Positions 13,730 to 60,663 of a stretch of 64,000 nucleotides of DNA are shown one piece after another (position 1 is the first letter of the stretch; every line of letters begins with the position of its first letter). This DNA comes from a bacterium (lineage in GTDB: Bacteria > Bacteroidota > Ignavibacteria > Kapaibacteriales > Kapaibacteriaceae): assembly GCA_036840065.1 (NCBI GenBank), contig DAITZZ010000006.1, positions 8,465 to 72,464 on the forward strand, given 5' to 3'. Made by a program: the position numbers and the translations under genes. The notes under the pieces were generated by a model, which saw only the letters and a program-made list of their open reading frames with translations, searched no databases and was not told the DNA's origin.

Positions 13730-15067
13730 TCAGTGCACAACAGCCACAGGCACTGAACGCACGCCACCATCTGAACGGATGACGGCAGAGTACATGCCCG
13801 ACGGGATATGGCTTGTCGACAGCCACACACTTGTGGATGCACCGGCTCCGGCTACCGCTCTGTGTGACGGGATCACCTGACGCCCGGCGGCATCGACCAG
13901 TTCGATCTCATACGTTCCGGCATCCTGCGCACCAAGCTCGATGCGAAGCCGGTCTGTTGCCGGGTTCGGGAAGGCGTCAATACGCAGCTTCGAAAGGTTC
14001 TCGTTGACCGATGCTAGTCCGAGGTGACGCATGACGAAACCCTGAATCGGAGCGACGTACTCAGCACCATCCGGAGAAATGACAATCGCCCTGGCGGCGC
14101 CGTCATCGCCCTCAAAACCCTCCTTGATTGCCGTCCACGATTCGCCGTAATTCGTGCTCAGCATCGGACCTGATGACTTTTCCAGCGTGGCCCAGATGCG
14201 GCCGTTCTTTCCAATAGAGATCGAGCTGATCCGATTGTTGGTGACGTCGCGATTGTCCCAACCATTTGTCAGATAGGACCATGACTCACCGTCATTGGTG
14301 GACTTCATGACCACCGCGTTCGGTGTCTTTGTTGATCCCGGAAGCGCATTACGCCCGACATAGAGATGCCCCTTTTCGTCAGAGGCCATTTGTCGAAACG
14401 TATCATCACTCTCACCGGAGGATGCATCGGTATCGATGCGCGCCCATGACGCACCACCATTGGTCGTGCGGTAAAGCCCCTTGTTGTAGCTGACAAGCAC
14501 AAACAGCTTGTCGGAATTGGGCGAGATGAAGACACCGAAGATCGAGTTCGTCGCCGAAGGGATGTTCGAGCGAGACACCTCGGTGAAGGTCTCTCCACCA
14601 TCATTCGACAGGCGCATCAGAAGCTTGGTAGGACCACCGTCATAACCAACGAAGATCTGCAACGCACCTGTGGTAAGGGGCTTGAGGTGGAAAAACAGCC
14701 GGCTCGATGGCGTCATGCCATCGATTTTGAGATCCAGCTTCCGCCACGTCTCACCGTTGTCATCCGAGCGCAACAGACCCAGACCATAGACCGCCGCGAA
14801 CAGCACATCATTCGGACCAACCTTGATCTGGGCGATCGTCATGAAATCCATTCCGGTGGCGATGCCATTCTCAAACGGCTCCCAGTTGGTGCCTCTGTCG
14901 GTGGTGCGATAGACCTTGCTGAACTGTGTTCCGGCAAAGACATGCCCCTTGGAGTTCGCGGCCAGGCATACGGTAGGTGCTGGTGGACCGCTCGTCTGCT
15001 CCCAGTACTGGGCGCTGGCAACAGCAGTGCAGGCAAAAAGGCAAAGGGCGAATCGCAGCATGTTCAT
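13730..15067 (-). CDS. BNR/Asp-box repeat (sialidase or Ycf48-like beta-propeller) protein with T9SS C-terminal sorting domain
   Basis: Signal peptide MNMLRFALCLFACTAVASAQ with GAGGAAAG ahead of ATG 15067. Repeated Asp-boxes (DRGTNWEP, DNGETWRK, DGGETFTE, NGGASWAR, DGESWSY, YGESWTA). The tail FPNPATDRLRIEL...YSAVIRSDGG fits the Por sorting domain. Confidence 0.75.
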   Translation of the reverse strand: MNMLRFALCLFACTAVASAQYWEQTSGPPAPTVCLAANSKGHVFAGTQFSKVYRTTDRGTNWEPFENGIATGMDFMTIAQIKVGPNDVLFAAVYGLGLLRSDDNGETWRKLDLKIDGMTPSSRLFFHLKPLTTGALQIFVGYDGGPTKLLMRLSNDGGETFTEVSRSNIPSATNSIFGVFISPNSDKLFVLVSYNKGLYRTTNGGASWARIDTDASSGESDDTFRQMASDEKGHLYVGRNALPGSTKTPNAVVMKSTNDGESWSYLTNGWDNRDVTNNRISSISIGKNGRIWATLEKSSGPMLSTNYGESWTAIKEGFEGDDGAARAIVISPDGAEYVAPIQGFVMRHLGLASVNENLSKLRIDAFPNPATDRLRIELGAQDAGTYEIELVDAAGRQVIPSHRAVAGAGASTSVWLSTSHIPSGMYSAVIRSDGGVRSVPVAVVH

Positions 15068-15162
15068 GGTCTTTCCTCGACGGTTGATCGGCACGCCGCG
15101 CAGTGCGGCCGCGTATGTTTGTGACTACGAAAGTTACCACATTTTCAGAGAGCCATCGACAC

Positions 15163-19600: not shown

Positions 19601-20845
19601 TGTGGCCCGCACATCGGCTCGATCCATCGTCGGAAACTGCTCGCGCATCATGGCAATAGTGGCGGCAACGTACGGGGCTGAGAATGACGTGCCATTGACG
19701 GTGCGGTAGCGGGAGCCGACGGACGTTGTAACAATGGCTTGGCCGGGCGCGCAGAGCGCGACCAGGGCGCCGGATGATGAGAACGGCGAACGTTGATTTT
19801 CATCATTCGTCGCAGCCACAGCGATCACGTGATCATAGCCGGCCGGGAACTGCCGGGACGTCGTGCCGGTGTTACCGACCGAGGCAACGAGCAGGCAGCC
19901 GCGTTCATGGGCGAAGCGAATCGCATCGCGCATGAGCGGAGAATCAACGCCATCGCCAAAGCTCATGTTGATGACGTCAACACCCTGTAGTGCCAGGTAT
20001 ACGATTCCGGCCGCGATGTCATCCTCCTCGGCATTGCCAGTGGCATCAAACGCCCGAACGATCCGCAGGCGCGCGTCATATGCAAGTCCGGCGATTCCTC
20101 GGCGGTTGTTGGGTGTGGCAGCAATGACGCCCCCTACCAGCGTTCCGTGTCCCTGCTCATCGAACGGGATCGGGTCATACTCCCGGTCATCGCCAAGGTT
20201 GCGTGTTGCCTGATCCACAAGGTCTATACCGATCACGTCATCAACGATGCCATTACCGTCATTGTCAAGTCCGTCAAGGTCTCCCGTCAGACCACCTATC
20301 GTATCGCGATGTGACCATGCATCGAAGCGCTGATTACCATTACGGTCTTCCGCCGGCGTGATGCTGAGCGCCCCCACCAGATCTTCATGCGTCCAGTCAA
20401 TGCCGGTATCGATGATCCCCACCACCGTGCCCTTGCCGGTTGCCCGCTGCCAGGCCCTGGCGGCACCGATGCGATGTAGCGCATACTGCCGATCGGCAAG
20501 CGAGTCATCGCTGAGGGGCTCATCATGAAGTCGAAAGCGCGACAGGGGGCGAACCTCTTCGATGCCTTCAGTGCCGGCAAGTGCGGACCAGTCCATCCCG
20601 GATGGAAGGTCGATCACGACATAGCGTGCCAGCCGATCGATAAGTGCTCGCTGGGAAGACGATTGAAGTGCATCAGCCGCCTTGCCCTGCACGAGCGCAT
20701 CGGCAATGGCCGCATGAGGCATAAACGGCAGAAGCCGCTCCGGCATCGTCCGAGAATTCAGGCGCACCAGGACACGGTTCTGAGCAAGAGCCTGACCCGT
20801 ACTGACAAGTACGGCAACAACGATGATGGTGGTGAGCAGCTTCAC
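16604..20845 (-). CDS. S8 (subtilisin) family serine protease fused to FG-GAP/VCBS-like repeats, with a C-terminal sorting-type domain
   Basis: Signal peptide and catalytic triad blocks DTGIDWTHEDL, HGTLVGGVIA and GTSFSAPYVAA. Several Ca-binding FG-GAP-like motifs (DIDGDGREEL, GDFDGDGRMEI, GDVTGDGRPDVV, HDFDGNGRREL). The tail YAYPQPL...GLYYVRV is sorting-type. Confidence 0.85.
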   Translation of the reverse strand: MKLLTTIIVVAVLVSTGQALAQNRVLVRLNSRTMPERLLPFMPHAAIADALVQGKAADALQSSSQRALIDRLARYVVIDLPSGMDWSALAGTEGIEEVRPLSRFRLHDEPLSDDSLADRQYALHRIGAARAWQRATGKGTVVGIIDTGIDWTHEDLVGALSITPAEDRNGNQRFDAWSHRDTIGGLTGDLDGLDNDGNGIVDDVIGIDLVDQATRNLGDDREYDPIPFDEQGHGTLVGGVIAATPNNRRGIAGLAYDARLRIVRAFDATGNAEEDDIAAGIVYLALQGVDVINMSFGDGVDSPLMRDAIRFAHERGCLLVASVGNTGTTSRQFPAGYDHVIAVAATNDENQRSPFSSSGALVALCAPGQAIVTTSVGSRYRTVNGTSFSAPYVAATIAMMREQFPTMDRADVRATLQQRTLDLGPRGWDDLFGAGLLQADLALADGPPSRVEITEPSNEIELDPSKTPQIDVRGSSMLASFSGYELAWAEGLAPRTWSTVATSATAVRDGLLGSVRLPASDSQVVTLRLRVLSSDGRSLDVFRRVRVAPSADLSIRSIEIVPAWKTDRRTDVVTVRTSVPCACELTSSTDTAALVQSLRRARVHSMIVPDTLGSAAEQNLLVRCWSEVGSRRDSAIEISSSRQGAGADSQWRAAGAASWSGYVLNDVRDIYRDGRSTVVMNDMSRGTFGALATRQYVDGRWITRDSIPDVYIPRGLGDANGNGLLDLLVHTVGKMVLFEQREPGGSPFASVIFADTTSGVNGAGMADIDGDGREELIGLADDECVVYTFKGTAFRLLGSITNSTPPAPGNAMNRVDEISVASGDFDGDGRMEIAFSDTDGDLVIGEWQGTRFDVTYTLTQPGSGGSGFVAQGDVTGDGRPDVVYAVPDSIEADAYGDYGRSVWTYTLLGSTADNTFEQLWKDRVAGVRYGAGFRNGLLVGDLDDVKGAEIVLCAFPRLYVFGRNRRDTSMECKRYIADVASPRFLIHDFDGNGRRELGYGTTIAEIGAMTSFLFTEPLAYELEAPSSLRAQWSGDDLQLDWIRSSADKLSVIEWAESSAPFTWLDTTNSITFSLAASSFTAPVMRFRVRALDASTGTLSSPSNTVTAVRRGSSPRVLSARDTVRRSEVQAGLIMQMIATADLDVRSLTTTMIEYVDHSGRVVGRATSVVPRSLRDMIVSFPAHEPGSSIGIGLRGVRDAQGRGLADTVIVVEVISDEPPLREITLASVTVESLRQIRVAFSEPVDQSAEQVTSYRLSPAGRIISVVRTGEATLQLLLDGERPLEPRGVPYAITATAVTSASGTKMTLGAGSTLLFTVVAPDLESVYAYPQPLRLGQHAALTIGGLPSAATVEVLDASFAPLRRLETTSGIGGIEWDLRLSDGRSLVPGLYYVRVRDESNPDAGPVLRKVWIER

Positions 20846-26296: not shown

Positions 26297-27644
26297 CGAC
26301 CTGAATGCGCATGTTCACTACGCTCTTGTCGAGCAGCGCCGGGAAGTACGCCACGACGTCGCTCGGCTTGGGCCGTCCGCCCGAAAAGCCAGTCACACTC
26401 GGCGGACCGGTCAGGATCAATGGCGCGATCTCCTTGGAGAATGCTTCAACGGCCCGGCGGTCCCGTCCGCGCACACCGATACGCATCATGACCTCATTCG
26501 GCACGATCTGCGGCGCGATCGCACCATGACAGGCGTTCATGCCCACGAACTCAGTGCGCACTTCATCGAATTCAAGACCCAGCATGTCGAGACGCTCACG
26601 TAGAATTCGGTCAGCCACGGTTGCCTTTTCATATGCATCGGGGGCTGAGTATGTCAACGACCCAAATGCAACGTATCCATCAAGGTACGAGGCGCTGACC
26701 TTGTACGTGGGCGTGTAGGGACGGCCCTTGATGCCGAACACGCGGACGCGATCGTTGCCGAGATCTTCCAGCTGGATCGTCGAAAAGTCAGCAATACAGT
26801 CAGGTGTGATATACGCTGTCGGATCGCCGATCTCGTACATCAGCTGTTCGCTGACGGTTTCCCGGCTTACGCGTCCACCAGTGCCATCGTGCTTGGTCAC
26901 GACAAACGAGCCATCCGGATACGCCTCGATGATCGGGAATCCCACATCGGCCATGTTCGGTAGCGAGCGCCAGTCGCCGAGGAAATTGCCTCCTGTTGCC
27001 TGAGCACCGCATTCGTTGATATGTCCGGCCACGGTACCAGCAGCAAGAAGGTCCCAGTCCGACTCGCCCCATCCAAACTCGTGGATCATCGGTGCGAGAG
27101 TAAGTCCCGTGTCCGTCGTGCGACCGGTGATGATGATCTGCGCCCCCTGCCGGAGTGCCTCAACAACGGGCCACGCGCCGGTGTATACGTTAGCGCTCAG
27201 GAGCTTGTCCTTGACCTCCGCGATCGGCTGTCCGGTCTCCATGTGTCGTAGCTCATGTCCGGAATCGACGAGCGATGAAATCTCCGGCAGGATATCGTCA
27301 CCGAGAACCACACCCACCTTGAGTCCGGTGATTCCCAGGCGCCGCGCCACATCAAAGATGCGGTCACGCGCAGCCAGCGGGTTCACGCCGCCGCCGTTGG
27401 TGATCAGCGTGATGCCCTTCTGCATGATCATCGGCAGGATCTGCTCGCAGACATCGATCAGGTCCTTCGCATAACCAAGTTCAGGGTTTCGCATGCGCTG
27501 CTTCTGCAGGATCGACATGGTCACCTCGGCCAGATAGTCCATCACAAGGTAGTCGATCGGACCACGGGTGACTTGTTCGTAGGGGGCTTTCTGGAGGTCA
27601 CCCCAGAAGCCCTGACCGGAGGCGATGCGGATTGAAGGTTTCAT
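26286..27644 (-). CDS. AtuA-like (DUF1446, acyclic terpene utilisation family) protein
   Basis: 452 aa. The N-terminus IRIASGQGFWGDLQKAPYEQVTRGPIDYLVMDYLAEVTMSIL is characteristic of DUF1446. Confidence 0.8.
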   Translation of the reverse strand: MKPSIRIASGQGFWGDLQKAPYEQVTRGPIDYLVMDYLAEVTMSILQKQRMRNPELGYAKDLIDVCEQILPMIMQKGITLITNGGGVNPLAARDRIFDVARRLGITGLKVGVVLGDDILPEISSLVDSGHELRHMETGQPIAEVKDKLLSANVYTGAWPVVEALRQGAQIIITGRTTDTGLTLAPMIHEFGWGESDWDLLAAGTVAGHINECGAQATGGNFLGDWRSLPNMADVGFPIIEAYPDGSFVVTKHDGTGGRVSRETVSEQLMYEIGDPTAYITPDCIADFSTIQLEDLGNDRVRVFGIKGRPYTPTYKVSASYLDGYVAFGSLTYSAPDAYEKATVADRILRERLDMLGLEFDEVRTEFVGMNACHGAIAPQIVPNEVMMRIGVRGRDRRAVEAFSKEIAPLILTGPPSVTGFSGGRPKPSDVVAYFPALLDKSVVNMRIQVDAL

Positions 27645-27659
27645 GAAAGGTAGGCTATG

Positions 27660-28235
27660 TTATCTGATGCTGGCTGAGTGGTTGGATTGGATCGTAGCCG
27701 AGCTGGCAAGCCGAAGCCGTTGCTCGAGTCGAGCCCTCTGGAACGGGAAAATACGAAAGGCTACGGCCTCGCCCTGACCTTGCGTTACCCGCACAGTGGT
27801 CCAGAGCATGTTGCTGATCAGCTCGATACTTGTCATCTCTGCGTAGGGGATCACGATCGGCCCGGGACGCACGATCGGCCGGATGACGAGAGCAAGCGTA
27901 CGCAGACGCGTGCGCTGAAAGTGAAGACGCAGCAAGATCTGCGTCATCTGCACGCCCCCTACCAGCGGCAGCGCGTAGCGGAATACCGTGGGCGGTTCGA
28001 TGTTGTAGCAGATCAGCCCTACGATGACAGTCACCCCGATGCCGGCCAGCGAAAGCAGCACGCCCGGAGCGCTATAGAGCAGCATCAGGTCTTCACCGCT
28101 GAGCCGGCGACGCAGTTCCAGGTTGTCCAGGATCTGCCGAAACGCAAGAGCGCCAAAGAGCAACACACTGAAGGCAAAGGCCACGTAGGCTCCATGCTGC
28201 AGGACGATCCAGGGCTCGGGGTACGACATTGTCAT
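27660..28235 (-). CDS. hypothetical membrane protein (three predicted TM helices plus a soluble C-terminal domain)
   Basis: Hydrophobic segments AYVAFAFSVLLFGALAF, GVLLSLAGIGVTVIVGLICY and ALPLVGGVQMTQILL. No family recognised. Confidence 0.55.
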   Translation of the reverse strand: MTMSYPEPWIVLQHGAYVAFAFSVLLFGALAFRQILDNLELRRRLSGEDLMLLYSAPGVLLSLAGIGVTVIVGLICYNIEPPTVFRYALPLVGGVQMTQILLRLHFQRTRLRTLALVIRPIVRPGPIVIPYAEMTSIELISNMLWTTVRVTQGQGEAVAFRIFPFQRARLEQRLRLASSATIQSNHSASIR

Positions 28236-28323
28236 TTGTCCACAATTTTATGCTATTGGAGTGCGCTCTTTTGCATGATATTTGTGACGCACGAAATCTC
28301 ACACGAAGATCCATTTACGGGCC

Positions 28324-29364
28324 ATGGATCAACTCTCTCAACGGCTTGCCCACGAACGGGTTCGACGAGGACTTTCGACCTTCGATCTTGCAGAAAGAAC
28401 GAAGATACGCGAGCCGTACATCCAGGCCATCGAGAAGGCCTCCTACAACGTTCTGCCTGCCGTATACGTTCGCTCGTTTATCAGAACGATCGCCGCGGAA
28501 CTGGGTATTGCACCTAATGAGATCAACCGTCTCATCAGTCAATGCCTTGATGCAGATTCCGACTCTTCGATGCCGTCGTTCTCACAGCAACGCAGCGCCA
28601 CATCGGCGGCTTCATCAACATCGAAGGATCAACGCACCTCGGATTCGTCAGACCCTTTGACGCCGCTGCTCGAGGCGCTTCGAGCGTTTTGGTCGCGGGT
28701 CAACGTCGGCAGTGGTCGTTTCACACCGAGAACGATCTTGTTTGCTTCTATCGGTCTGATTGTCCTCATCTGCGTGGTCTGGTATCTCACCTCGCGCTCG
28801 GGGAATGGCTCTGCGACCGATGTCCCTGAAGAGATCGTCGACGTCACCGGTGCCGGCGTGGAAGACAGCCTTATCCTTTCGGCCGTATCATCGGACACCG
28901 CAGAGCTGACCATTACCATGGACGGAACACGGTATCAGAAGATCACGATGATGCCGGAGATCGAGCACCGATGGAGTGCGATGAAACGATTCACCGTCAG
29001 CAACATCTTCAACGCCGGTGCGATCCAGTTTTCTCGAGATGGACAGCCCCTTCCCCGCTACGGGAAAAGGGACGAAGTGCTGCGCGAGCTGGTGATCACC
29101 CGCACGGAGGTGATCGCATCGAATACCAGCACCAAGATGATCACCGCACCGGCTGATCCAGAACGTGCCCGTCGGGATTCGATCCGTGAGCAACAGCGTC
29201 GCGACTCTATCCGCATTCTGCGACGCCAGGAAAACCAGCGCCTTGCCCGCGAAAAGCGTGACAAACTCAAGGCGCGGTCTCGTCAGCAGCCCGCGTCGCC
29301 GATACAGCGGCCGCGGCAGCAGGAACAAACGATCACAAAGACGCCGCCACGGTCAATCCGCTAG
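28324..29364 (+). CDS. rodZ: RodZ-like cytoskeleton protein (HTH, TM, RodZ_C/DUF4115, basic tail)
   Basis: N-terminal Xre-type HTH (RRGLSTFDLAERTKIREPYIQAIE), one TM (ILFASIGLIVLICVVWYL), a DUF4115-like beta domain and an Arg-rich C-terminal tail. Confidence 0.7.
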   Translation: MDQLSQRLAHERVRRGLSTFDLAERTKIREPYIQAIEKASYNVLPAVYVRSFIRTIAAELGIAPNEINRLISQCLDADSDSSMPSFSQQRSATSAASSTSKDQRTSDSSDPLTPLLEALRAFWSRVNVGSGRFTPRTILFASIGLIVLICVVWYLTSRSGNGSATDVPEEIVDVTGAGVEDSLILSAVSSDTAELTITMDGTRYQKITMMPEIEHRWSAMKRFTVSNIFNAGAIQFSRDGQPLPRYGKRDEVLRELVITRTEVIASNTSTKMITAPADPERARRDSIREQQRRDSIRILRRQENQRLAREKRDKLKARSRQQPASPIQRPRQQEQTITKTPPRSIR

Positions 29365-29377
29365 TCGGCTCGTTCTG

Positions 29378-29477
29378 CTCCTACCCTGCCATCTGAGCGC
29401 GGACAACATCGTGCAGACGGATGACGCCAACAAGCTCTGAACCATTGATAACCGGGAGCACGCCGATGGCGCGGTGG
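29378..29477. repeat. 100-bp direct repeat, copy A (orphan copy of the kpsF 3' end)
   Basis: Hand-aligned and identical at 100/100 positions to 34182-34281. Confidence 0.95.
29381..29477 (-). pseudogene. orphan fragment equal to the last 31 codons and stop of kpsF (CBS-domain tail), with no start
   Basis: On the minus strand it encodes HRAIGVLPVINGSELVGVIRLHDVVRAQMAG*. It is preceded in frame by TAG TAA, so it cannot be translated as part of a larger ORF. Confidence 0.85.
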
Positions 29478-29506
29478 CCGCAAATGGTGCCATCAACTTC
29501 AGGTTA

Positions 29507-32500
29507 CTATCTGGTGATGGTGATAACCTTCGACACCGTAGTGCCCCCAGCCGTCAGCTTGCAGAAGTATGCTCCGCTTGGCACCTCGGTGCCATTGTTG
29601 GATCTTCCATCCCAGCCCAAAACGTATCGTTGAGACACTCCCTCTACGACATCATCGTAGAGCAGAATCACAGGCCGGCCTAATGCATCGATGATTTCTA
29701 AGCGCACCAGGGACCGATTCGGGCATTTGAATGACAGAACGATGCTTCCTGACGACGGATTGGGGTGAGGCTCGTCCATTGCAACATCACCATCGTTGCC
29801 CCTTGGGACGGAAACAACGCCAGAGTATGCAACTCCCGAACCCGCCTCAATCTGCCGGAGTCGATACTCAAATGCGCTATCGACTGACGCGCTCACATCC
29901 CTAAAGCTGTAGTCCATTTGCTGCGCAGATGTGCCTTTGCCGGAGACAAAACCAATTTCGCTCCATGGACGCGTCTTGCTCTGGTGGTGATCAGCGCAAG
30001 ACAGACCACGTGCACGAACATCCAGAATAGTTGCACTATCCGTTGGGCGACGGTCGATGAGGAATCCGGCATTGTTCAGCTCGGATTCCGTTTGCCAGAA
30101 GAGATCCACGGCTGCGCCTCGGCGGCGAGCGTCGAAGGCTGAGAGGACGACTGGCACGAAACACGACCACGAGTAACGCCGCGGGCGTGGTCCAAAGTAC
30201 GGCCGTATCATGGGAATCCACGACCCCTGAGTAAATGTCTCAAAACCTCTCACTGTTCCCTTGATGTCCAGATGCGGCAACAGTGGTGTGCCGCCGGTTG
30301 GCGCAAACCAATCAACAGTACCACTCGGACTCGACCTCAGATTTGCAAACAGCTGGTCATTAATCATAGTCCCGCTTCGCAGACGTCGACGAAGGTTTCT
30401 GTCTGCATAGAGCGAAAGACAGCTGTCCTTGCCCGAACCCGCTTCGGTTACCATCGTTGTCACCATTCCCATGCGGTCAGCCGATGCTCCGAGCTCAATA
30501 CCCCTTTCCGTTAGCTGACGGACACTGATCCAATACCGACCTCTGTTAAGCTTTAACGGCTTCGGCAGCTTGTAGGTGATGTTTCGTCCGAACTGTGGGC
30601 TACTTCCCGGTACGAGATCATCCATGCCGCGGAGTCTTACGATCGCGGAGCCGGGCACATCAACCAGGATCTGTTCTCCTGTCTCCATCTTGAGGCTGAT
30701 CTCAACCGGGTCGGGATTGCTGTTCAATTCTCCCCATAGCATCTGATAGCCGAGGATCGAATCGCTCGCAACGATGGTAAAGCACGCTGCAATGCGATTG
30801 CCGGGAGCATTGAGCCCCTTGCCAGCGATACCAGAGAACTGAGGCAGCGGAACGTGATTGATCGCGCTGTCGGCATCGTACTCATACGCCAGAACGCTAC
30901 CATGATTAATGACAACTCGCGTGCATGTGGAGTCATTTGCTGAATCAGCATCACTATCGGGAAAGAACAGCTTGGCGGAAATCGTGTACGCTCCTGGTGG
31001 CAAATCATCGAATCTGGCATCGGGAGACGGAAGTAAAACACTTGACATGGCTCGAAGAGTAGGAATTGTTATCGGGCGGAAATAGACGCAATTAATCCGA
31101 TCAAGATCCGAGCCATCGGGGTCACGAGTAATCCGCACGGCTACGGAAAATGACGGAGAGGCAACAGTGCTCAGATTCGAAAGTTGGAATCGAACAGGAA
31201 CGCTTCCTAGTTGAGTAGGGGGGGCCATGGTATAGGGGTGATGCAACCGAATCGAGCTCATCTCTATATCGGGGATCTCCTGCGTATACAGCACCTTAAC
31301 ATTGTCGATGAAGAAGTCGTCATTATCATCTTCGGGACCACCAGCAATCCCATGATTGAGGCAATGTGTCCGAAGACGAAAGCGGAAGTTGCGCGCCCCT
31401 TGCGCCGACCACCTAAACACCGTATCGGGAATTGGAATGAAAAGCTTCCGAAACTCAATGTCTTTACCTTCATCGTACAGATCAGGCATCAATCCCGTTC
31501 GACCCGACACGGGGTCGCTCGAGAGCTGGCGATTGTAGTCCTGGGAGTCAAATCCACGGGCATTCCCGCCCCCTCCCCAGATCTGAAATGGTTGCATGTA
31601 CTCTGCACGTCGGCCTTGGTAGTCAAGAACCCACTGCTGTACGTTGGTGATCCCGGTAACGCTATCGTCTGAAGGCCTAGCAAACTCTACAAGAAGTTTA
31701 TCCGGCTCGCGGTAGGTTTTCATTTCACCGTAAGACGTCAGCATGGCAACGCGATGTTCTGGTCCTATCAGACGCAGGTCACTAAAGCCCCTATCGGTCT
31801 TGGCACCTTTGCCCGTACGATGGTACGAGATCGATAACACAGCGCCTTTCTTCCCAAGAAGGTCTATCGGAAACGACCTCAGCTCGTCACCGCCATACTG
31901 ACCGGGCTTCGGGATTTCAGAGCCGTCATGATGTACGCGGTTCATGCGAATGACTGGTGAGTTCAACACAAATTCTGAACGATTTGCACATCTACTTGTG
32001 CCAATCGGCGGTGGGGCTAGGTAGGTAGTTCGATCACCATCGACTACTTCAGCGCCGATATTCACCCAACGAAGCGGTGATGGAATGGCCACTGAATCGA
32101 GAAGGTGAAAGCCGTCACCGGTCTCTGCTAACGTCGACAGTCGGACGAGAGCATGCAGCTTCGCCGCAATAGTATCGTCAAAAGGCCACCTGTCATCAAT
32201 AGGTGCACTTTCGCTGGTAAGAGCCTCTACAGAAACCTTCGTTAAGAGGGTTCCTACATGCTTTGCGTTTAGGGGATTGGGTTCAAATGCTGGGAACACG
32301 ACCTTGACATACTCATATGGCAGAACGGATCGTCCTGACGGCTCGTATGGTCTATTCGTACCATCAGCGTTAGCGCGAAAAGTCTGGGAAATGTTCGTGT
32401 CGCGAAGTGTCGCGTCGGTAACAACCTTCGAGACATCGTAGACGAGGTCACCGGACGAGGCGTTCAGGATACGGCATCGCACACGCATCTGTATACCCTG

Positions 32501-34090
32501 GCGCTGATAATTGACGCCAGCCGGTCCCTGAATGTCATTTGAAAGGCTCTGTACGAGCGCAACGGGTTGTAACGGACCGAGGCGTTCGTCGCCGGCCAGA
32601 ACCTCATAGCCATCGACGGACCCGGAAGGCACAATTGTAGAGTAGGCAAGGCTCGAGCCTGCCCGTTGGGAGCGGACCCGGTAAGAAACACTGACTGCAC
32701 GAACCATATTACGATGCTGCGCAAATCGCACAGCTAGCCGGTCCGATGGAAAATCACGGCCAAGCGGTGATGCTCCTGAAGGCGTCACGGCAGAGGTTGC
32801 ATCGGTATCGATGTTGTGTAGATACACAGTGCTCTGTACGTACTTCGGAACCGAATAATCAAGCACCGATAAGGCCGGTACTGATGAAGGGAATCCTGCC
32901 CAGTCGAGACGCCGTGCCGCACCGATCACCCCCACGGTTGAGTTGCATCGCATCCAGACATTTGCAGGATATGAGGTGGCTGAGAGTCTCGGGGCTGTTC
33001 CTGCAAAACGATCATACTGGACTGTCACAGAGCTGTCGGCCCCGTTCAGTGTCACCTGGACAGAAAACCGATAATGTTCACCAAACCCCGGCCGATTGTT
33101 AGCAGCAAAGGCGACCTCGGAGATGGGCTGGTTACCGATACGGGCTCGTTTCAAACCGATCGGCGTGAGATTCACAAAGTAAATCACGATTCGGTCACTG
33201 TTCGGAACACGCTTGTAATACACGCGGGAAAAGTCATCAACGCTCAGATCAGCCCCATTCACGACAGAAACCTGCAAGTCATCCCACGCCGGAGCGACTA
33301 CCTGTGGGAGGATTGATCCCCATACGGCACTGAGTCCATTGCTGTCGAGCCTGAGATTCTGCTTTGTTCGAATTCCTGCTTTCGGGCTCGATGGTGAGCC
33401 TGCACATGCTACGGCCGTGTAACCCCACGAGTCGTCCGTGGCATCTGACATTCCGTCCCCACTGCGATGGCGCGGATCATCGGACTGTGAATCGTAGGCA
33501 GAAAGAACACCTGTGCTGGCAAGACGAAGCTCCCGTGAAAGCAGGGCACCATTCACGTCAGTACGGTAGTGATAGCGTCTGTTCGAGAAAGCAATCAGGC
33601 CATTGGTGGAGATATAGAAAGAATCCTGCCGAACGCCGTTGAAACTGAATGGGAACCCAATGGCAATAGGTCCGGCAAAGGCATCATCAGTTGAATCCTT
33701 CAGGTCGCCCGGATTGCGGAAAAATGCCATGCCTCCATATGCATTTCGTCTCTGATCAGACCAAAACGAAGCATCGTATTGATTTGGTCCCGAAACGATT
33801 CGTTTCCAGGAACCTCGGTCGTTAAGCGTATCCTCAAACTCATTTGCCGAGGGCTTCCAAGGGTCTGATATGGCTTCGTCCGAATCGACGAAGTAATACC
33901 CTGATGAAACAGCCACGGCCTCACGATTATTGGCACCTGACCCGACAAAAGGCTGCGGATACGTCGAGGCTGCTGCATGTGTGTGACTTCGTCGCTGGGC
34001 AATGGCTACATCGTTCTGCTTCTCCTGCGCAGTAACGGTGTTGATATAAGAACACAACGCTACGAGATAGACAACGGCGGACTGTTTCAT
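29507..34090 (-). CDS. giant secreted protein of unknown function, T9SS type-A cargo (paralogue 1, about 1527 aa)
   Basis: Start at ATG 34090 (MKQSAVVYLVALCSYINTVTAQ) with GGAGGA 4 nt upstream. The C-terminal tail is HPNPSSGSIVLSF...SGAYFCKLTAGG...ITITR. A NIDO-like block GFPFSFNGVRQDSFYISTNGLIAF and a jelly-roll-like block ARNFRFRLR...DDFFIDNVKV are present. It is colinear with the 35237-39964 protein. Confidence 0.85.
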   Translation of the reverse strand: MKQSAVVYLVALCSYINTVTAQEKQNDVAIAQRRSHTHAAASTYPQPFVGSGANNREAVAVSSGYYFVDSDEAISDPWKPSANEFEDTLNDRGSWKRIVSGPNQYDASFWSDQRRNAYGGMAFFRNPGDLKDSTDDAFAGPIAIGFPFSFNGVRQDSFYISTNGLIAFSNRRYHYRTDVNGALLSRELRLASTGVLSAYDSQSDDPRHRSGDGMSDATDDSWGYTAVACAGSPSSPKAGIRTKQNLRLDSNGLSAVWGSILPQVVAPAWDDLQVSVVNGADLSVDDFSRVYYKRVPNSDRIVIYFVNLTPIGLKRARIGNQPISEVAFAANNRPGFGEHYRFSVQVTLNGADSSVTVQYDRFAGTAPRLSATSYPANVWMRCNSTVGVIGAARRLDWAGFPSSVPALSVLDYSVPKYVQSTVYLHNIDTDATSAVTPSGASPLGRDFPSDRLAVRFAQHRNMVRAVSVSYRVRSQRAGSSLAYSTIVPSGSVDGYEVLAGDERLGPLQPVALVQSLSNDIQGPAGVNYQRQGIQMRVRCRILNASSGDLVYDVSKVVTDATLRDTNISQTFRANADGTNRPYEPSGRSVLPYEYVKVVFPAFEPNPLNAKHVGTLLTKVSVEALTSESAPIDDRWPFDDTIAAKLHALVRLSTLAETGDGFHLLDSVAIPSPLRWVNIGAEVVDGDRTTYLAPPPIGTSRCANRSEFVLNSPVIRMNRVHHDGSEIPKPGQYGGDELRSFPIDLLGKKGAVLSISYHRTGKGAKTDRGFSDLRLIGPEHRVAMLTSYGEMKTYREPDKLLVEFARPSDDSVTGITNVQQWVLDYQGRRAEYMQPFQIWGGGGNARGFDSQDYNRQLSSDPVSGRTGLMPDLYDEGKDIEFRKLFIPIPDTVFRWSAQGARNFRFRLRTHCLNHGIAGGPEDDNDDFFIDNVKVLYTQEIPDIEMSSIRLHHPYTMAPPTQLGSVPVRFQLSNLSTVASPSFSVAVRITRDPDGSDLDRINCVYFRPITIPTLRAMSSVLLPSPDARFDDLPPGAYTISAKLFFPDSDADSANDSTCTRVVINHGSVLAYEYDADSAINHVPLPQFSGIAGKGLNAPGNRIAACFTIVASDSILGYQMLWGELNSNPDPVEISLKMETGEQILVDVPGSAIVRLRGMDDLVPGSSPQFGRNITYKLPKPLKLNRGRYWISVRQLTERGIELGASADRMGMVTTMVTEAGSGKDSCLSLYADRNLRRRLRSGTMINDQLFANLRSSPSGTVDWFAPTGGTPLLPHLDIKGTVRGFETFTQGSWIPMIRPYFGPRPRRYSWSCFVPVVLSAFDARRRGAAVDLFWQTESELNNAGFLIDRRPTDSATILDVRARGLSCADHHQSKTRPWSEIGFVSGKGTSAQQMDYSFRDVSASVDSAFEYRLRQIEAGSGVAYSGVVSVPRGNDGDVAMDEPHPNPSSGSIVLSFKCPNRSLVRLEIIDALGRPVILLYDDVVEGVSQRYVLGWDGRSNNGTEVPSGAYFCKLTAGGTTVSKVITITR

Positions 34091-34181
34091 AGTGTCCTCC
34101 ATAAAACAGCTATTGTACATCGCAGGTTACTATGGCCCTGCTGCTAACAGCTAAACATAGGCAATAATGTTACACTCGCGC

Positions 34182-34281
34182 CTCCTACCCTGCCATCTGA
34201 GCGCGGACAACATCGTGCAGACGGATGACGCCAACAAGCTCTGAACCATTGATAACCGGGAGCACGCCGATGGCGCGGTGG
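34182..34281. repeat. 100-bp direct repeat, copy B (functional 3' end of kpsF)
   Basis: Identical to 29378-29477. It starts 3 nt beyond the kpsF stop codon. Confidence 0.95.
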
Positions 34282-35159
34282 GGTGACTCCATGAGCATGA
34301 GTGCTTCGTGCAACGAGGCAGAAGAGGCAACCGTCGTCGGTGCTGCCGTCATGACGCTATCGACAGTCACGGAAGCGAAATCAACACCTCGCTCGACGAG
34401 ACGTCGAACGTCTCCATCGGTGAGAATGCCACAGATGTGCGTGCCGTCACGAACAACGCAAACGATGCCCAAAGCATGACGATCAAGCTCGTGGATGGCC
34501 GCATCCAATGTCGAGCCTGAAACGATGGAAGGCAACCCTGCTCCACTATGCATATGGTCCTTCACCTGCCGTCCAAGAAGTGAACCGATCGATCCGTGAG
34601 GATGCGTGCGCGCCAGCACATCCATTGATTCCGGCCGACGGTGAGCGATGGACATCACGAGCAGGTCGGCAACGATCAATGACGTAGTCGTGCTTGCCGT
34701 CGGCAGAATATTCATCCGATCATACTCACGGTCGATTGGCGCAACGAGGCGTATGTGCGCCCTATTGGAGAGGGTTGTTTCCCGACGTGAGGTCACCGAA
34801 AGCAATGTCACGCCCTCTTCCTTCAGAGCGTCCAGGAGACTGACGAGTTCGGCCGTCTCACCGCTCTTGGAGAACATCACCACTGCAGTTCCCTTTTGCA
34901 CAACACCAAGGTCGCCATGAAGTGCATCGGCGCTATGCATGAACGAAGCCTGAAGTCCAAGACTGGCAAGCGATGCAGCGAATTTGCGAGCGACGAAGCC
35001 GGACTTCCCTACTCCCGTAGCCACAACAGTACTGGCACTCGTGAGCGCATCGACGGCACGGTCAAACTCTTCGTTGATCTCCTTCTCAAGGAGATCAAGG
35101 GCATTGCGCTGCAGTTGCAACGCATCGACAACATCCTGCGGCAGGGGGCGAGCATTCAT
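34185..35159 (-). CDS. kpsF: KpsF/GutQ family arabinose-5-phosphate isomerase
   Basis: 324 aa with a SIS domain (GVGKSGFVARKFAASL, FSKSGET) followed by two CBS domains. Confidence 0.88.
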   Translation of the reverse strand: MNARPLPQDVVDALQLQRNALDLLEKEINEEFDRAVDALTSASTVVATGVGKSGFVARKFAASLASLGLQASFMHSADALHGDLGVVQKGTAVVMFSKSGETAELVSLLDALKEEGVTLLSVTSRRETTLSNRAHIRLVAPIDREYDRMNILPTASTTTSLIVADLLVMSIAHRRPESMDVLARTHPHGSIGSLLGRQVKDHMHSGAGLPSIVSGSTLDAAIHELDRHALGIVCVVRDGTHICGILTDGDVRRLVERGVDFASVTVDSVMTAAPTTVASSASLHEALMLMESPHRAIGVLPVINGSELVGVIRLHDVVRAQMAG

Positions 35160-35175
35160 ATCTGCGAATATCTGT

Positions 35176-35212
35176 AGAAAAAGAAAAGCCCCCGACGTAG
35201 AACGTCAGGGGC
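35176..35212 (-). terminator. rho-independent terminator after giant paralogue 2
   Basis: Minus-strand stem GCCCCUGACG / CGUCGGGGGC (one G-U pair), a 5-nt loop, then UUUUCUUUUU. It begins 25 nt after the stop at 35237. Confidence 0.75.
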
Positions 35213-35236
35213 TTTGGAATTTCCGGCTGGAAATGC

Positions 35237-38200
35237 TTAGCGCACGATGGTCAGCGTCTTCGACAAGATCGTCTCACCGACGGTGAGCTTGTACATGTAC
35301 GAACCGCTGGCAACGTCGACGCCATCTTCGCCACGACCATCCCACTCAACAGCGTATGCTGTTGATTGACCGGCTACGACATTGTCGTACACATTCTTGA
35401 CAACATTGCCCATGAGGTCAAACACTTGAAGCTTGACGCGTGAGCTTTGAGGAACCGTGAATGTGAACGTTGTCTTGCCATTCGATGGGTTTGGATAGCT
35501 ATTGTCGAGCGCGACACTTGCATTGTTACCGAACTCAACGTCGACAACATTGGAGAAGTTGTTCGCGCCACTTGCGTCGACCTGACGCAGACGGTACTGA
35601 TACGAAACTCCAGTTGTGACATCAGCATCAAAGAACTTGTAATTCAACGTCGTGTTTGAGTTGCCAGATCCAGCAACAAAACCAACGTTCTTCCAAGGAT
35701 TGTTTGCGTCTGTCGTGTTGTCGACGCAGGTAAACGATGCCTTGCCAGTTGTCAGGTTGTGTACTTCCTTGACCGCGCGGCGCTCCACATGGAAACCAAC
35801 GTTGTTCGTTTCCGATGCTGTTTCCCAGAAGAGGTCCACACCGGCAGAACGTCCCTTTGCATCAAAGAATGACAGCTCGACAGGGTTGGACTCACAGTTG
35901 ATAAACAGCGGAGGATTCGAGAACGAACGGTTTCCGAAGAACGGACGGATCAGCGGGATCCATGAACCACGTGTGAACGTAGCATAACCAAGGCTTCCAC
36001 CCATAGCGTCAAGATGCGGATAACCAGGGTTACCGATCGTTGGCGTGAATGGAACCCAGTCACCGCTGAAGCGCGTCATTTCATACGCGAAGCGGTTATC
36101 GTTCAGAAGAGATCCTGCACGATTGCGCACGCGGAAGTTCTTGTCGATAAGAAGTGAGCGGTTACCGATACCGAACACAGGAACGTCTGAGTACAGCGTC
36201 GTCACCATGCCCATACGTGTTTCCGAGGCACCGAGTTCGTAGCCTTCCGTACCCATCTGAGCAACCGATGCCCAATATTCACCCGGTGGGATGACTACTG
36301 GTGTAGCGAGCAGATACGTGACATACTTACCGAACTGAGGCTCGGTGAATGCGCCCGTTTCGTCTTCGCCACGGCGACGCAGAATCGTAGAGTTCGCGAT
36401 ACGTTCGTCACCAGGAACACCGCCCTGATCACGATACAGCGAGAACGAGATGTTCAGAACGTCTTGGTTGAGTTCTGCCCAGAAAGCCTGGTAACCAGCA
36501 AGCGTGTCCTGAGAGTAGAGTGTAAAGCGCATTGCCAGCTGACCCGAGGAGTTACCGGCATCGGCACCATACATCTGCGCACCGGCAAGCGGATTCGGGA
36601 ACGTGCCCCACGTTGAACCTGCCGTGTATTGCTGGTTAGGACCCGTCAGCAACGACTGCCACGACGAGCCGTTAGCACCGGCAGAGAATCCACCGTGATT
36701 CAGACCCTTACCCGTAACACCTGAGAACTGAATCTTCGGCACGTCGTTCGCTGGATTCGCAGGATTCGTTTCATAGGCAAACGCAGGACCAAACGTCATG
36801 CGGAACATCGTGAACGTCGAATCGTTCAGGGTGTCAAGATCGTTACCCGGGAAGAAGATGCGACCCGTGATCTTGTAGTTGCCCGGCGTCGTCGTACGGA
36901 AGTTCGCGTCTGGGAATGGCAGGATCACTTCGCGGTTTCCGGCAAGTGTCGGAACCGTAATGGAACGACAGTAGATCTGCTGCGATTCGTTTCCATCTGG
37001 CTTAATCCAGAGCTTAACCGAGAATGCCGGAGCGGCAATATTCGTGTTGTTCGAAAGCTTAACACGAATCGGAACGCGTGTTGCCTGCGAGGCCGGTGCC
37101 ATGGTGTAAGGCCAGATCAGCTGGATATTGCTGAACTCGATATCGGTGACTTCGTCCGGGAAGAGAAGCTTCACGTTATCGATGTAGAAGTTGTCTTCGT
37201 CGTCAGACGGAGCCGGAGGAATCGAATTCATCACGCAGCTTGCGCGAAGGCGGAAGCGGAAGTTACGAGCACCTTCATTGACCCAGCGAAGCACGGTGTC
37301 AGGAATTGGGATCGTGACCTTGTAGTATTCAGCATCCTTACCATCGTCGAACAGATCCTCACGCAGACCTCCAAGTGGCGGCGTCGTGGTGTTCGTCAGC
37401 TGGAGGTTGTAATCGGCAATGTCAAAACCACGAGCAAAGCCACCACCACCCCAGACCTGGAACGGCTGGAGATACTGCGTTCCGCGACCCATGTAGTCAA
37501 GGGTCCACGTCTGGATGTTTGTGATGTTAGTCAGACCGTCAAACGATGGACGAGCGAACTCGACAAGCAGACGGTCAGGATTGCGGAAGCCAGGGGTGAA
37601 ACCATTGACAGCAAGCATGTTCACGCGGTGCTCTGGTCCAATCAGACGGTTATCCGAGAAACCACGACCAATGTTCGTGAGCCTACCGGAACGCTGATAG
37701 GAGATCGAAAGAACAGCGCGCTTGCGACGGACAAGGTTGATTGGGAACGAACGAAGCTCGTCACCACCGTATTGACCGATGACCGGGATATCAACGTTTG
37801 CCAGATTGAGGCGGTTCATTCGAATGACCGGTGACTTCAGACGGAAGATGTCTGAATTCGCAGCGGCATACTCACCGCGCGGAGGAGGAGGATTATTGGT
37901 GACTTCGTCACCGTCCACAACCTCAGATTCGATGTTCACCCACTTGAGAACAGAAGGCATCGCAGCCCCACCAATGAGGTGGTACTCGTTGACGTCGTCC
38001 GAGAACGACGTCAGACGGCGCATCGAGAAAATGCGGATGCTCGTCGTGTCGTCAAAAGGCCACTGATCACCAATCGGCTGATTGATCGAGTCCTTTGGTT
38101 CGGCAATAACTGTCGTCAGAAGACGACCGATCTGATCGTCGATGAACGGATTCGGCTCGAATGGAGGGAAGATCACCTTGATGAACTCGTAAGGGAGCAC

Positions 38201-39964
38201 GAACGTGCCAGCAGGCTGATACGGCTGGTTGACACCGTTGATGTCACAGCGGAAGACCTGTGAGATGTTCGTGTCACGAAGAGCAGCGTCCGTCACAGCA
38301 CGCGAAGTGTTGTAAACGATCTTGCCTGTTGCCTCATTGACGATACGGAAACGTACGCGGAAGTTTGTGCCTTGCGGTACGTAGTTCACGCCCTGTGGAC
38401 CTTGAATGTCGTTGGTCAGGCTCTGAACAATGGCCACTGGCTGGATGGCGCCGAGGCGATCCTCACCAGCAAGCAGCTCGTAGTTGTTAGCCTGCGCTGG
38501 AGGAACAATCACCGAGAACGCGAGGTTGGCATTGCTGTTCTGCTGACGCACACGATACGACACGTTGATAACGCGAAGAACGTTGCGGAACTGCTTGAAC
38601 TTAATGGCCAGGAAGTCCTTCGGAACCGTGTTGTCGTCGTTACGCGAGCTGATAGCACGCACACCACCTGCAGGATCGACGTCCACGTTGTAGAGATACT
38701 CAGTGCTCTGCGTATACTTTGGAGCGTTGAAGTCAAGCGTCGTGATTGTCGGCATGACCGACGGGAAACCGTTCCAGCTCAGACGGCGAGCCGGACCAGT
38801 AACACCGACCGTTGAATTACAACGCATCCAGACGGTAGCGGCATACGGAGAAATTGCCGTACGTGGAGCAAGACCCGAGAATCGCTCGTACTGGATCGTT
38901 ACCGAACTGTCACTACGATTCAGCGTAACCTGGAGCGACCAGCGAAGGTGCTCTCCAAGACCGGGACGATTGTTGGCTGCGAATGTCACGTTATACTGAG
39001 GACCACCACCGGAGCGGGCTGTCTTGGCACCGATCGGTGTGAGGTTCACGTAGTAAATGACAAGCTTGTCGTTCGATGGCGAGCGCTTGTAATAGACGCG
39101 CGAGAAGTCATCGACAGCGTTGTCGTTCGGGTTGTAGACCGATACCTGAAGGTCGTCCCATGACGGCGCAATAAGTTGCGGAAGCACACCACTCCAGTTA
39201 GCCGCAATGCTATTGGCATCAAGCATGCGGTTCGTCGTCGTGCGAATACCGGCCGTTGGGCTGCCTGGATTGCCACCGCAGGCAACGTTGTTGTATCCCC
39301 AGTTGTCGAGTGTAGCGTCCGTCATCCCGTCGCCCGATCGCGAACGTGTGTCATCGGACATCGGGTCGTACGCCGAAAACACGCCAGGGCGTACTTCAAG
39401 CGACTGACGAGCAATAGGGTATCCGAACTGATCGATCGAATAGAAGTAGCGACGATTCGACAGGGCGATCAGACCGTTCGTCGACACGTAGAACGAGTCC
39501 TGGCGAACACCGTTGAAGAAGAACGGGAAACCAATCGAGATCGGTCCGGCAAAGGCGTTGTCGGTCGAGTCACGTGCGTCCCCAGGATTGCGGAAGAACG
39601 CCCAGCCACCGTAAATGTTCTGGGTCGGATCCGTCCAGTATGCTGTCGGAAGCTGCTTTGCCCCCGACAGGATTCGACGCCACGTACCTGGTTCGGTAAG
39701 GGTGTCGACAAACTGTGAAGGATCTGGGCGCCAGAAATCCGGTGCCTCGTCGTCCGAGTCCACGAAGTAATACCCCGTGGAGATGGCTGGATTCGTGCGC
39801 GCGTTCGGACCATTGGCCGTGAACGGCTGCGGATAGGACGCCACCGGCGTACGCTGTCCGCTCTTGCGCAACACGTCTTCGCCATCCTTTTCGTCGGCAG
39901 CCATAGCGAGCGAAACGCTCACAAGCCCCGTCATGAGAACAAGGAATAGCAGTCTGCGGCTCAT
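35237..39964 (-). CDS. giant secreted protein of unknown function, T9SS type-A cargo (paralogue 2, about 1575 aa)
   Basis: Start placed at ATG 39964 (MSRRLLFLVLMTGLVSVSLAMA, GAGG 7 nt upstream). The ORF-track extension to 40264 has no signal peptide and runs into purN. The tail is YPNPSNGKTTFTF...SGSYMYKLTVGE...LTIVR. It shares the conserved blocks of paralogue 1. Confidence 0.85.
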   Translation of the reverse strand: MSRRLLFLVLMTGLVSVSLAMAADEKDGEDVLRKSGQRTPVASYPQPFTANGPNARTNPAISTGYYFVDSDDEAPDFWRPDPSQFVDTLTEPGTWRRILSGAKQLPTAYWTDPTQNIYGGWAFFRNPGDARDSTDNAFAGPISIGFPFFFNGVRQDSFYVSTNGLIALSNRRYFYSIDQFGYPIARQSLEVRPGVFSAYDPMSDDTRSRSGDGMTDATLDNWGYNNVACGGNPGSPTAGIRTTTNRMLDANSIAANWSGVLPQLIAPSWDDLQVSVYNPNDNAVDDFSRVYYKRSPSNDKLVIYYVNLTPIGAKTARSGGGPQYNVTFAANNRPGLGEHLRWSLQVTLNRSDSSVTIQYERFSGLAPRTAISPYAATVWMRCNSTVGVTGPARRLSWNGFPSVMPTITTLDFNAPKYTQSTEYLYNVDVDPAGGVRAISSRNDDNTVPKDFLAIKFKQFRNVLRVINVSYRVRQQNSNANLAFSVIVPPAQANNYELLAGEDRLGAIQPVAIVQSLTNDIQGPQGVNYVPQGTNFRVRFRIVNEATGKIVYNTSRAVTDAALRDTNISQVFRCDINGVNQPYQPAGTFVLPYEFIKVIFPPFEPNPFIDDQIGRLLTTVIAEPKDSINQPIGDQWPFDDTTSIRIFSMRRLTSFSDDVNEYHLIGGAAMPSVLKWVNIESEVVDGDEVTNNPPPPRGEYAAANSDIFRLKSPVIRMNRLNLANVDIPVIGQYGGDELRSFPINLVRRKRAVLSISYQRSGRLTNIGRGFSDNRLIGPEHRVNMLAVNGFTPGFRNPDRLLVEFARPSFDGLTNITNIQTWTLDYMGRGTQYLQPFQVWGGGGFARGFDIADYNLQLTNTTTPPLGGLREDLFDDGKDAEYYKVTIPIPDTVLRWVNEGARNFRFRLRASCVMNSIPPAPSDDEDNFYIDNVKLLFPDEVTDIEFSNIQLIWPYTMAPASQATRVPIRVKLSNNTNIAAPAFSVKLWIKPDGNESQQIYCRSITVPTLAGNREVILPFPDANFRTTTPGNYKITGRIFFPGNDLDTLNDSTFTMFRMTFGPAFAYETNPANPANDVPKIQFSGVTGKGLNHGGFSAGANGSSWQSLLTGPNQQYTAGSTWGTFPNPLAGAQMYGADAGNSSGQLAMRFTLYSQDTLAGYQAFWAELNQDVLNISFSLYRDQGGVPGDERIANSTILRRRGEDETGAFTEPQFGKYVTYLLATPVVIPPGEYWASVAQMGTEGYELGASETRMGMVTTLYSDVPVFGIGNRSLLIDKNFRVRNRAGSLLNDNRFAYEMTRFSGDWVPFTPTIGNPGYPHLDAMGGSLGYATFTRGSWIPLIRPFFGNRSFSNPPLFINCESNPVELSFFDAKGRSAGVDLFWETASETNNVGFHVERRAVKEVHNLTTGKASFTCVDNTTDANNPWKNVGFVAGSGNSNTTLNYKFFDADVTTGVSYQYRLRQVDASGANNFSNVVDVEFGNNASVALDNSYPNPSNGKTTFTFTVPQSSRVKLQVFDLMGNVVKNVYDNVVAGQSTAYAVEWDGRGEDGVDVASGSYMYKLTVGETILSKTLTIVR

Positions 39965-40109
39965 GCAAACCTCGATGAAACTGTGATGAAGTATGTGTGT
40001 TTGGTTTTCACTTTGAACAGTCTTCTCTGCGATGAAGAGACGTAACAACATTGCAGAACGCACATAGTTACATGTGCAACAATGCGCTCCGCCCCTTTCA
40101 GCGTCCTTC

Positions 40110-60626: not shown

Positions 60627-60663
60627 GGAGTCTCCGTTCACGGAATCTGGAAGCATTCGGTGA

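Follow-up and report, generated by a model that had tools for sequence, protein, structure and literature searches.

A giant type IX-secreted protein gene bracketed by copies of the kpsF 3′ end: probable insertion-duplication and concerted evolution in Kapabacteria-like bacteria

How does a single giant gene come to lie between two identical copies of the tail of a housekeeping neighbour, and does the identity of those copies say when it arrived? The question is raised by a 64-kb stretch of DNA from a bacterium of the Kapaibacteriaceae (contig DAITZZ010000006.1, positions 8,465 to 72,464; the whole stretch is referred to as the window, or W). Here a 100-nt direct repeat derived from the 3′ end of kpsF encloses one gene, G1, for a cargo protein of the type IX secretion system (T9SS), and a sequence-only reading had taken the repeat as the footprint of a recent integration. 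Comparison with related genomes suggests that the gene was probably inserted by host recombination and that the repeat copies have since been kept alike by gene conversion, such that their identity does not date the event.

The repeat copies, at 29378-29477 and 34182-34281, lie in the same orientation with a start-to-start spacing of 4804 and match at 100 of 100 positions, the repeat finder agreeing with the earlier hand alignment; identity drops off sharply beyond both ends. This is the sole long repeat in the window, the only other of at least 30 nt being a 32-nt match at 81% between G1 and its paralogue G2. Copy B (34182..34281, minus strand) is the working 3′ end of kpsF (34185..35159, minus strand), comprising the last 31 codons and 1 nt, the stop codon and 3 nt beyond, and is contiguous at its 5′ side with the rest of the gene. 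Copy A (29378..29477, minus strand) is an orphan fragment, as had been read from the sequence before: it is preceded in the kpsF frame by the TAG TAA that terminates G1 and begins 14 nt past the last base of the stop codon of a convergent rodZ-like gene (28324..29364, plus strand), which encodes an HTH_25 protein and forms the right flank. The 13 nt at 29365..29377 separate the orphan from that stop codon. The 4704-bp insert between the copies, denoted X, consists of a 91-nt leader or promoter region that travels with G1 (34091..34181, minus strand), G1 itself (29507..34090, or 34120, minus strand; 1527 or 1537 amino acids) and a 29-nt spacer from the G1 stop to the orphan (29478..29506, minus strand). 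With K5′ for the 5′ part of kpsF, B for the repeat and Z for the rodZ-like gene, the layout is K5′-B-X-B-Z, with kpsF intact and G1 the only gene of the cassette. No terminator-like site is found between kpsF and G1. A role for the orphan as a functional RNA or terminator was considered and rejected, there being no Rfam match, a fold z-score of +0.48 and no terminator-like site.

Relatives were found with KpsF, two in a one-genome-per-species scan and a third in a metagenome scan, and more came from the genomic contexts of the G1 protein cluster. In one of them, L001 (KpsF 86% identical in amino acids), the rodZ-like gene directly follows kpsF, G1 is missing and there is exactly one repeat copy, which is the adjacency without an insert that the earlier reading had proposed to look for. 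The L001 junction from kpsF to rodZ, …GGGTAGGAG joined directly to CAGAACGAGC…, is the junction found to the right of the orphan copy in W, and the sequence after the L001 kpsF stop, GAG CAGAACGAGCGGA CTA…, is that following the orphan in the window; the 13-nt spacer at 29365..29377, which adjoins the 3′ side of the orphan, is thus ancestral kpsF-rodZ intergenic sequence. Because the orphan-side junction matches and both window flanks align to L001 by BLAST with a 100-bp overlap, L001 represents a precise empty site with one repeat copy, and the segment between the repeats is a genuine insertion/deletion unit. The L001 record (CALRYC010000025.1) is titled 'MAG: Chitinophaga pinensis', a metagenome-assembled genome (MAG); its locus is syntenic with and 84-87% identical to MAGs labelled Ignavibacteria or Kapabacteria, and the taxonomic label looks wrong.

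Occupied sites were found in two species-level lineages. L002 and L003 (KpsF 91-92% identical in amino acids) are collinear with the window across 21 kb with no large indels, and both carry G1 and the 100-nt repeat with the same boundaries, the copies matching at 97 of 100 positions in L002 and at all 100 in L003. Four further assemblies (L006, L007, L008 and L013) have the L003 haplotype and one (L011) that of L002; with L002 and L003 these make up the L002/L003 lineage. The W lineage consists of the window and L019, a second independent assembly that is 99.75-100% identical to it. Both junctions are the same base for base in ten other public records, representing eight distinct occupied-site assemblies, so that the structure is common to two lineages and four haplotypes. 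In the flanks the two lineages are about 90% identical in nucleotides, with a range of some 80-93%. Cassette type is linked to flank type, the W-type cassette lying in W flanks in two assemblies and the L003 type in L003 flanks in five, and this linkage in independent assemblies argues against chimeric assembly. More distantly, three genomes (L014, L017 and L018) have a G1-type gene of 1520-1527 amino acids between kpsF and the rodZ-like gene with no kpsF fragment, and in L015 the slot is empty. Syntenic housekeeping genes make up the flanks in every relative, and the distant Kapabacteria-like genomes keep the neighbourhood MetH, PurN, G2, kpsF, …, rodZ-like, AtuA, DUF2279, GT2, AIRS and RecQ.

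Divergence was compared between W and L002/L003. While MetH, PurN, kpsF, the rodZ-like gene, orf191, AtuA and DUF2279 show nucleotide identities of 86-93% and synonymous divergences (dS) of 0.32-0.56, G1 is 98.0% identical, uniformly over 4.6 kb, with a dS of 0.05 and a ratio of nonsynonymous to synonymous divergence (dN/dS) of 0.22; the proteins are 97.7% identical. Over the insert 101 of 4704 sites differ (2.1%), against 12.7% in the 400 bp on either side. Mismatch density switches within 34299-34177 towards kpsF and within 29479-29349 towards rodZ, and the low-divergence block therefore corresponds to repeat, X and repeat, to within 17 and 28 bp of the repeat edges. Each repeat copy has three differences between the lineages, a count in keeping with the cassette rate (P = 0.36) and smaller than the raw flank rate would predict (P = 0.001 per copy). 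The contrast in dS implies that the cassette crossed the species boundary or reached both lineages from a common source. By this measure it is younger than its flanks, with a transfer at roughly a tenth of the lineage divergence time and end-points at the repeats.

The repeat copies themselves show that their perfect match in W is a poor guide to age. Variable sites, numbered in kpsF orientation, are positions 4, 24, 29, 31, 40, 61, 73 and 98. Both copies in W read C, C, A, C, A, T, T and G at these sites, as does the kpsF copy of L019, while the L019 orphan reads C, C, G, T, A, T, T and A. Both copies of the L003 type read C, C, G, C, A, A, C and G; in L002 the kpsF copy reads G, C, G, C, C, A, C and G and the orphan C, G, G, C, A, A, C and G. 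The single copy of L001 reads T, C, C, T, A, T, C and G. The copies mismatch at 2-3 of 100 positions in L019 and L002/L011, where the differences are private to single copies; in L019, as in L002, 97 of 100 positions agree. Positions 61 and 73 are diagnostic of lineage, yet the two copies of any one lineage agree there: judged against L001, A61 is the derived base in both copies of L002/L003, as is T73 in both copies of the W lineage. A29 is shared by the kpsF copies of W and L019, but among the orphans it is seen in that of W alone. At none of the sites do the kpsF copies stand together against the orphans. This pattern indicates that the copies have probably been homogenised repeatedly by gene conversion, of which the 100/100 identity in W would be a reflection; renewed duplication of each lineage's own tail is the alternative. 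Since substitutions are shared by both copies and mismatches are specific to strains, the identity in W is no clock for the insertion. The earlier argument from zero divergence to a recent event does not hold, the junctions being common to two species-level lineages and substitutions being present in both copies. It had also been argued that an orphan with accumulated substitutions in many distant relatives would mean an ancient fixed arrangement, and this is borne out in part, in that substituted copies are seen in L019 and L002/L011 and the orphan is common to the two lineages.

Differences between W and L019 cluster at window positions 29303-29449, with nine substitutions and an indel there against about one difference per kb or fewer elsewhere. 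The cluster marks the corner of orphan and rodZ as a recombination patchwork and suggests one small recombination patch. In L019, 8 bp have also been deleted right next to the orphan (L019 10566-10580, corresponding to window 29363-29373), and the rodZ-like stop reads TGA instead of TAG.

On balance it would seem probable that X entered by a RecA-type single-crossover insertion at the kpsF tail, either of the Campbell type or by homology-facilitated illegitimate recombination (HFIR). The starting chromosome would have been L001-like, K5′-B-Z, with kpsF directly beside the rodZ-like gene, and the incoming DNA would have carried G1 along with a copy of the final ~100 bp of kpsF, the gene that natively precedes G1 in the donor. 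This donor segment, B-X, may have been circularised at one illegitimate joint, 29477/29478, or may have acted as an ends-in substrate. One crossover between the incoming B and the resident kpsF tail would then place X between two tail copies, one of which completes kpsF while the old tail becomes the orphan, still joined to the kpsF-rodZ spacer. In either the Campbell or the HFIR model 29477/29478 is the only joint that would need to be novel. Later X would have passed between the two species-level lineages in tracts that ended at the repeats or no more than ~30 bp away from them, and RecA-type gene conversion would periodically homogenise the 100-bp copies, giving the full match in W. At 100 bp the tract lies close to the lower limit of length at which RecA pairs efficiently. 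The repeats would also permit precise loop-out, regenerating an L001-like empty site; this is compatible with L001, as is a site that was never occupied. We infer the circular or ends-in intermediate, the dependence on RecA, and the direction and number of transfers. Of the earlier proposal, that DNA carrying a copy of the target's 3′ end had integrated, the Campbell-type layout with an intact kpsF stands, as does the suggestion that the cassette may loop out.

Several points weigh against such an insertion. With site conservation controlled for through L001, the repeat's low divergence is non-significant (Fisher p = 0.17), as the kpsF stretch that holds the repeat is conserved anyway, and crossovers may have occurred just outside the repeats rather than within them. 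Ordinary double crossover in the nearest conserved stretches gives the same block limits. The flanks are themselves patchy recombinants, which leaves the order of events uncertain. A W-type G1 beside kpsF without the orphan was not found, the repeat being present in 17 of 17 G1-cluster members with context, and there is no G1 homologue between 50% and 97% identity in a collection of 5.8 billion proteins. Finally, one contig (L005, Logan SRR6483167_451) of 4834 bp has a 30-nt terminal overlap and closes to a 4804-bp cycle of X plus one repeat, reported in two samples. This was not accepted as evidence for a circle, since de Bruijn graphs form such cycles from any repeat that is k bases long or longer. 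The contig begins exactly after variant repeat positions 29/31; oddly, it runs through the branch towards rodZ, where a purely chromosomal arrangement at even coverage should break it, and contigs from other samples (L009, L010 and L012) stop at the repeat.

An extension of the insertion scheme is a mobile unit without a recombinase, in which RecA loop-out of a 4804-bp circle, carrying G1 and the 100-bp tail, is followed by uptake into a related cell and re-insertion at the kpsF tail there by a single crossover. This is doubtful. If true, a portable piece of housekeeping-gene homology would amount to an attachment site that renews itself, by means of which a giant surface-protein gene is carried from species to species.

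The strongest competitor to single-crossover insertion followed by repeat-bounded transfer, possible though rather unlikely, is that the duplication is the scar of one illegitimate event (HFIR with duplication, or a templated 100-nt patch in break repair) and that the cassette then spread by ordinary double-crossover transfer in kpsF and rodZ, the repeat having no later part in it. Here the tract ends would be explained by the sequence just outside the repeats being too diverged (19-24%) for strand exchange, and identical stretches of 45 and 55 bp that straddle the outer repeat edges would be the nearest usable homology. The unsettled statistics on whether the repeats belong to the low-divergence block leave room for this, and G2 provides a case of inter-lineage tracts without any repeat. 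Over 38618-37419 (~1.2 kb) G2 of W is 100% identical to that of L003 and only 86-92% identical to that of L002, although L002 and L003 are conspecific and match at 99-100% in the flanks; the dS of G2 is 0.13 between W and L003 and 0.49 between W and L002. This mosaic indicates a very recent exchange of alleles between species with no flanking repeat. Against a one-off scar, the cassette tracts end 17 and 28 bp from the repeat edges despite identity blocks of 30-86 bp further out, the concerted substitutions still require gene conversion and the origin of the duplication is left unexplained.

Integrative elements typically give direct repeats built from the 3′ end of a gene that itself remains whole, and the presence/absence polymorphism among relatives would also suit a decayed site-specific element resembling a CIME, in which att-flanked cargo is left after loss of the integrase, with the repeats as attL and attR at the kpsF 3′ end. 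The searches make this improbable. As the sequence-only reading had noted for integrases and transposases, no integrase, recombinase or transposase domain was found by Pfam in 48 open reading frames across the window, namely the cassette gene and 47 others of at least 150 amino acids. Inverted repeats of 20 nt or more are absent from 27000-37000, as is any arm-like structure. A 51-nt core of the repeat has no match in 2.9 million viral contigs, and a tblastn search with G1 on phages and plasmids gave no phage match and no full-length plasmid match, only one to the C-terminal domain at 9% coverage. The cassette holds a single gene, of a type native to this slot in distant relatives without the repeat, and full identity over 100 bp is long for an att core. 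An integrase-borne element or transposon was accordingly rejected; the terminal inverted repeats and transposase of a transposon or insertion sequence with target-site duplication were likewise not found. The site-specific half of the earlier proposal thus finds no support, with no recombinase, no attP-like viral copy and a repeat-less G1-type slot in relatives.

An old tandem duplication of the giant gene with kpsF, after which most of the second kpsF was deleted and 100 bp were kept similar by gene conversion, would account for G1 and G2 being tandem paralogues each followed by kpsF sequence, and gene conversion does act on the repeat. It is nevertheless very improbable, for reasons that also bear on where G1 came from. 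G1 is 49% identical in amino acids to its neighbour G2 and about 50% identical to all G2 orthologues, which are 83-99% identical to one another everywhere, and about 50% identical also to the G1-type genes of L014, L017 and L018, which are 77-87% identical among themselves. Relative to G2 it shares a 48-residue and a 3-residue gap with these orphan-less G1-type genes. On its right the orphan is joined just as kpsF is joined to rodZ in a chromosome that lacks G1, and the 29-nt spacer has no homology to the terminator region between G2 and kpsF. The spacer has no counterpart in the three distant relatives either, where only 14-15 nt separate the G1-type stop from that of rodZ. From the equidistance, the shared gaps and the presence of G1-type genes in the same slot without the orphan, G1 is not a recent or tandem copy of G2, from which the earlier reading, too, had found it strongly diverged. 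It belongs instead to a class of fast-evolving paralogues that have their native position immediately after kpsF. Consistent with this, its 91-nt leader shares short motifs (GCGAG-TG, ATAG…CGATGTA and GAGGA…ATG) with regions upstream of the distant G1-type genes. Since such genes lie downstream of kpsF without an orphan in L014, L017 and L018, a donor with a native adjacency of kpsF, leader and G1 is plausible, and its chromosome would supply just such a fragment of kpsF tail, leader and G1.

That the arrangement is an assembly artefact, through a repeat-induced misjoin or strain switching in metagenome assembly, might be suspected of a MAG contig with a repeat of the suspiciously round length of 100, and it can scarcely be credited when the same junctions occur to the base in eight other assemblies from different projects and assemblers (NCBI, JGI and ENA), some with mismatches between the copies that an artefact would not be expected to give, and with a consistent linkage of cassette and flank types.

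An 11-mer, ATAGTAACCTG (kpsF orientation), is present at 34122-34132, 49 nt inside the left end of the insert, and at 29503-29513, 25 nt inside its right end. The left copy lies within the motif conserved upstream of the G1-type genes in L014, L017 and L018, and the right copy includes the TAG TAA stops of G1; the pairing may be a chance match. Between the W clade and L014, L015, L017 and L018, identity is only 53-63% for KpsF and the RodZ-like protein, compared with 83-94% for G2 and 89-94% for AtuA. It would appear that kpsF and the rodZ-like gene, which flank the variable slot, either evolve much faster than their neighbours or are themselves exchanged.

The gene content of the locus agrees with the earlier description of a rodZ-like gene, a single giant T9SS gene of ~1527 amino acids, an intact kpsF and a paralogue. 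G1 has an N-terminal signal-like segment and a C-terminal sorting domain that matches TIGR04183 at residues 1443-1523 with 25.9 bits (cutoff 23), the score against Pfam PF18962 being 20.7 bits, under the cutoff of 27; by its sorting domain it is a predicted T9SS type A cargo protein. A search of solved structures with G1 gave no match. KpsF, of the arabinose-5-phosphate isomerase family, has a SIS and two CBS domains and is identified as a KpsF/GutQ sugar-phosphate isomerase by TIGR00393 (210.1 bits, cutoff 203.7) together with PF01380 and PF00571. Exact-protein look-ups of the KpsF and RodZ-like proteins of the window gave no match. The left neighbour, G2 (35237..39964, minus strand), is likewise a T9SS cargo gene, conserved apart from being mosaic between lineages, with its own strong terminator at 35215-35185. 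Its start and 5′ leader (39819-40018) are 100% identical among W, L002 and L003 and 96% identical in L001, with adjacent 200-bp windows at 73-93%; there is no Rfam match for this segment, which may be a conserved regulatory leader. Other secreted or surface proteins encoded in the window are a BNR/sortilin-repeat protein with a T9SS C-terminal domain (13730-15094), a 1413-residue S8 subtilase with FG-GAP repeats (16604-20845) and an 830-residue Ig-domain protein with a T9SS C-terminal domain (58164-60656).

The main value of the locus lies in the evidence it gives for traffic of giant T9SS surface-protein genes between species. In freshwater Kapabacteria-like bacteria the kpsF-rodZ slot and the adjacent G2 appear to act as hot spots at which species exchange giant type IX-secreted proteins, which would be relevant to diversification of the cell surface in these organisms. 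If the insertion took place as proposed, it would be a natural case of a laboratory mechanism, in which a single large gene is gained, lost and passed between species through host recombination and ~100 bp of homology to a neighbour. The locus also carries a caution, namely that perfect identity of short repeats cannot date an insertion where gene conversion resets the clock strain by strain.

Among known systems, integrative and conjugative elements, integrative and mobilisable elements, prophages and CIMEs at gene 3′ ends share with this locus the direct repeats from the 3′ end of an intact gene and the presence/absence polymorphism; here, in contrast, no integrase, attP counterpart, conjugation or phage genes were found, and the cargo type is native to the slot in repeat-less relatives. 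The behaviour of the copies resembles the concerted evolution of short dispersed repeats, with lineage substitutions in both copies and private differences present in some strains and erased in others, although here one partner is a non-functional 100-bp orphan 4.8 kb from a functional template. For type VI secretion system (T6SS) modules of V. cholerae an HFIR model has been put forward in which orphan 3′ ends are displaced (PMC5361080). As in T6SS effector-immunity modules and the orphan arrays of Rhs and contact-dependent growth inhibition loci, one end is anchored by homology and the other joint is illegitimate, orphan 3′ fragments lie downstream and large secreted or surface proteins are diversified (PMC5361080), whereas here the orphan is the tail of the housekeeping neighbour kpsF rather than of the variable gene, and the 100-bp duplication is clean with no loss of recipient DNA. 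In E. coli, single crossovers between a circle and the chromosome gave target duplications of 109-950 bp (PMC3240628). The Campbell-type insertion-duplication is matched here in that both direct repeats copy a single contiguous stretch of the target, kpsF is preserved, one copy is present at the empty site and loop-out would reverse the event; it differs in being a natural event in uncultured Kapabacteria-like bacteria, with one 4.6-kb chromosomal gene as cargo, no vector or replicon, and a circle that is postulated. Taken with these systems, the event is of a known kind, insertion-duplication by host recombination followed by concerted evolution, and requires no new machinery.

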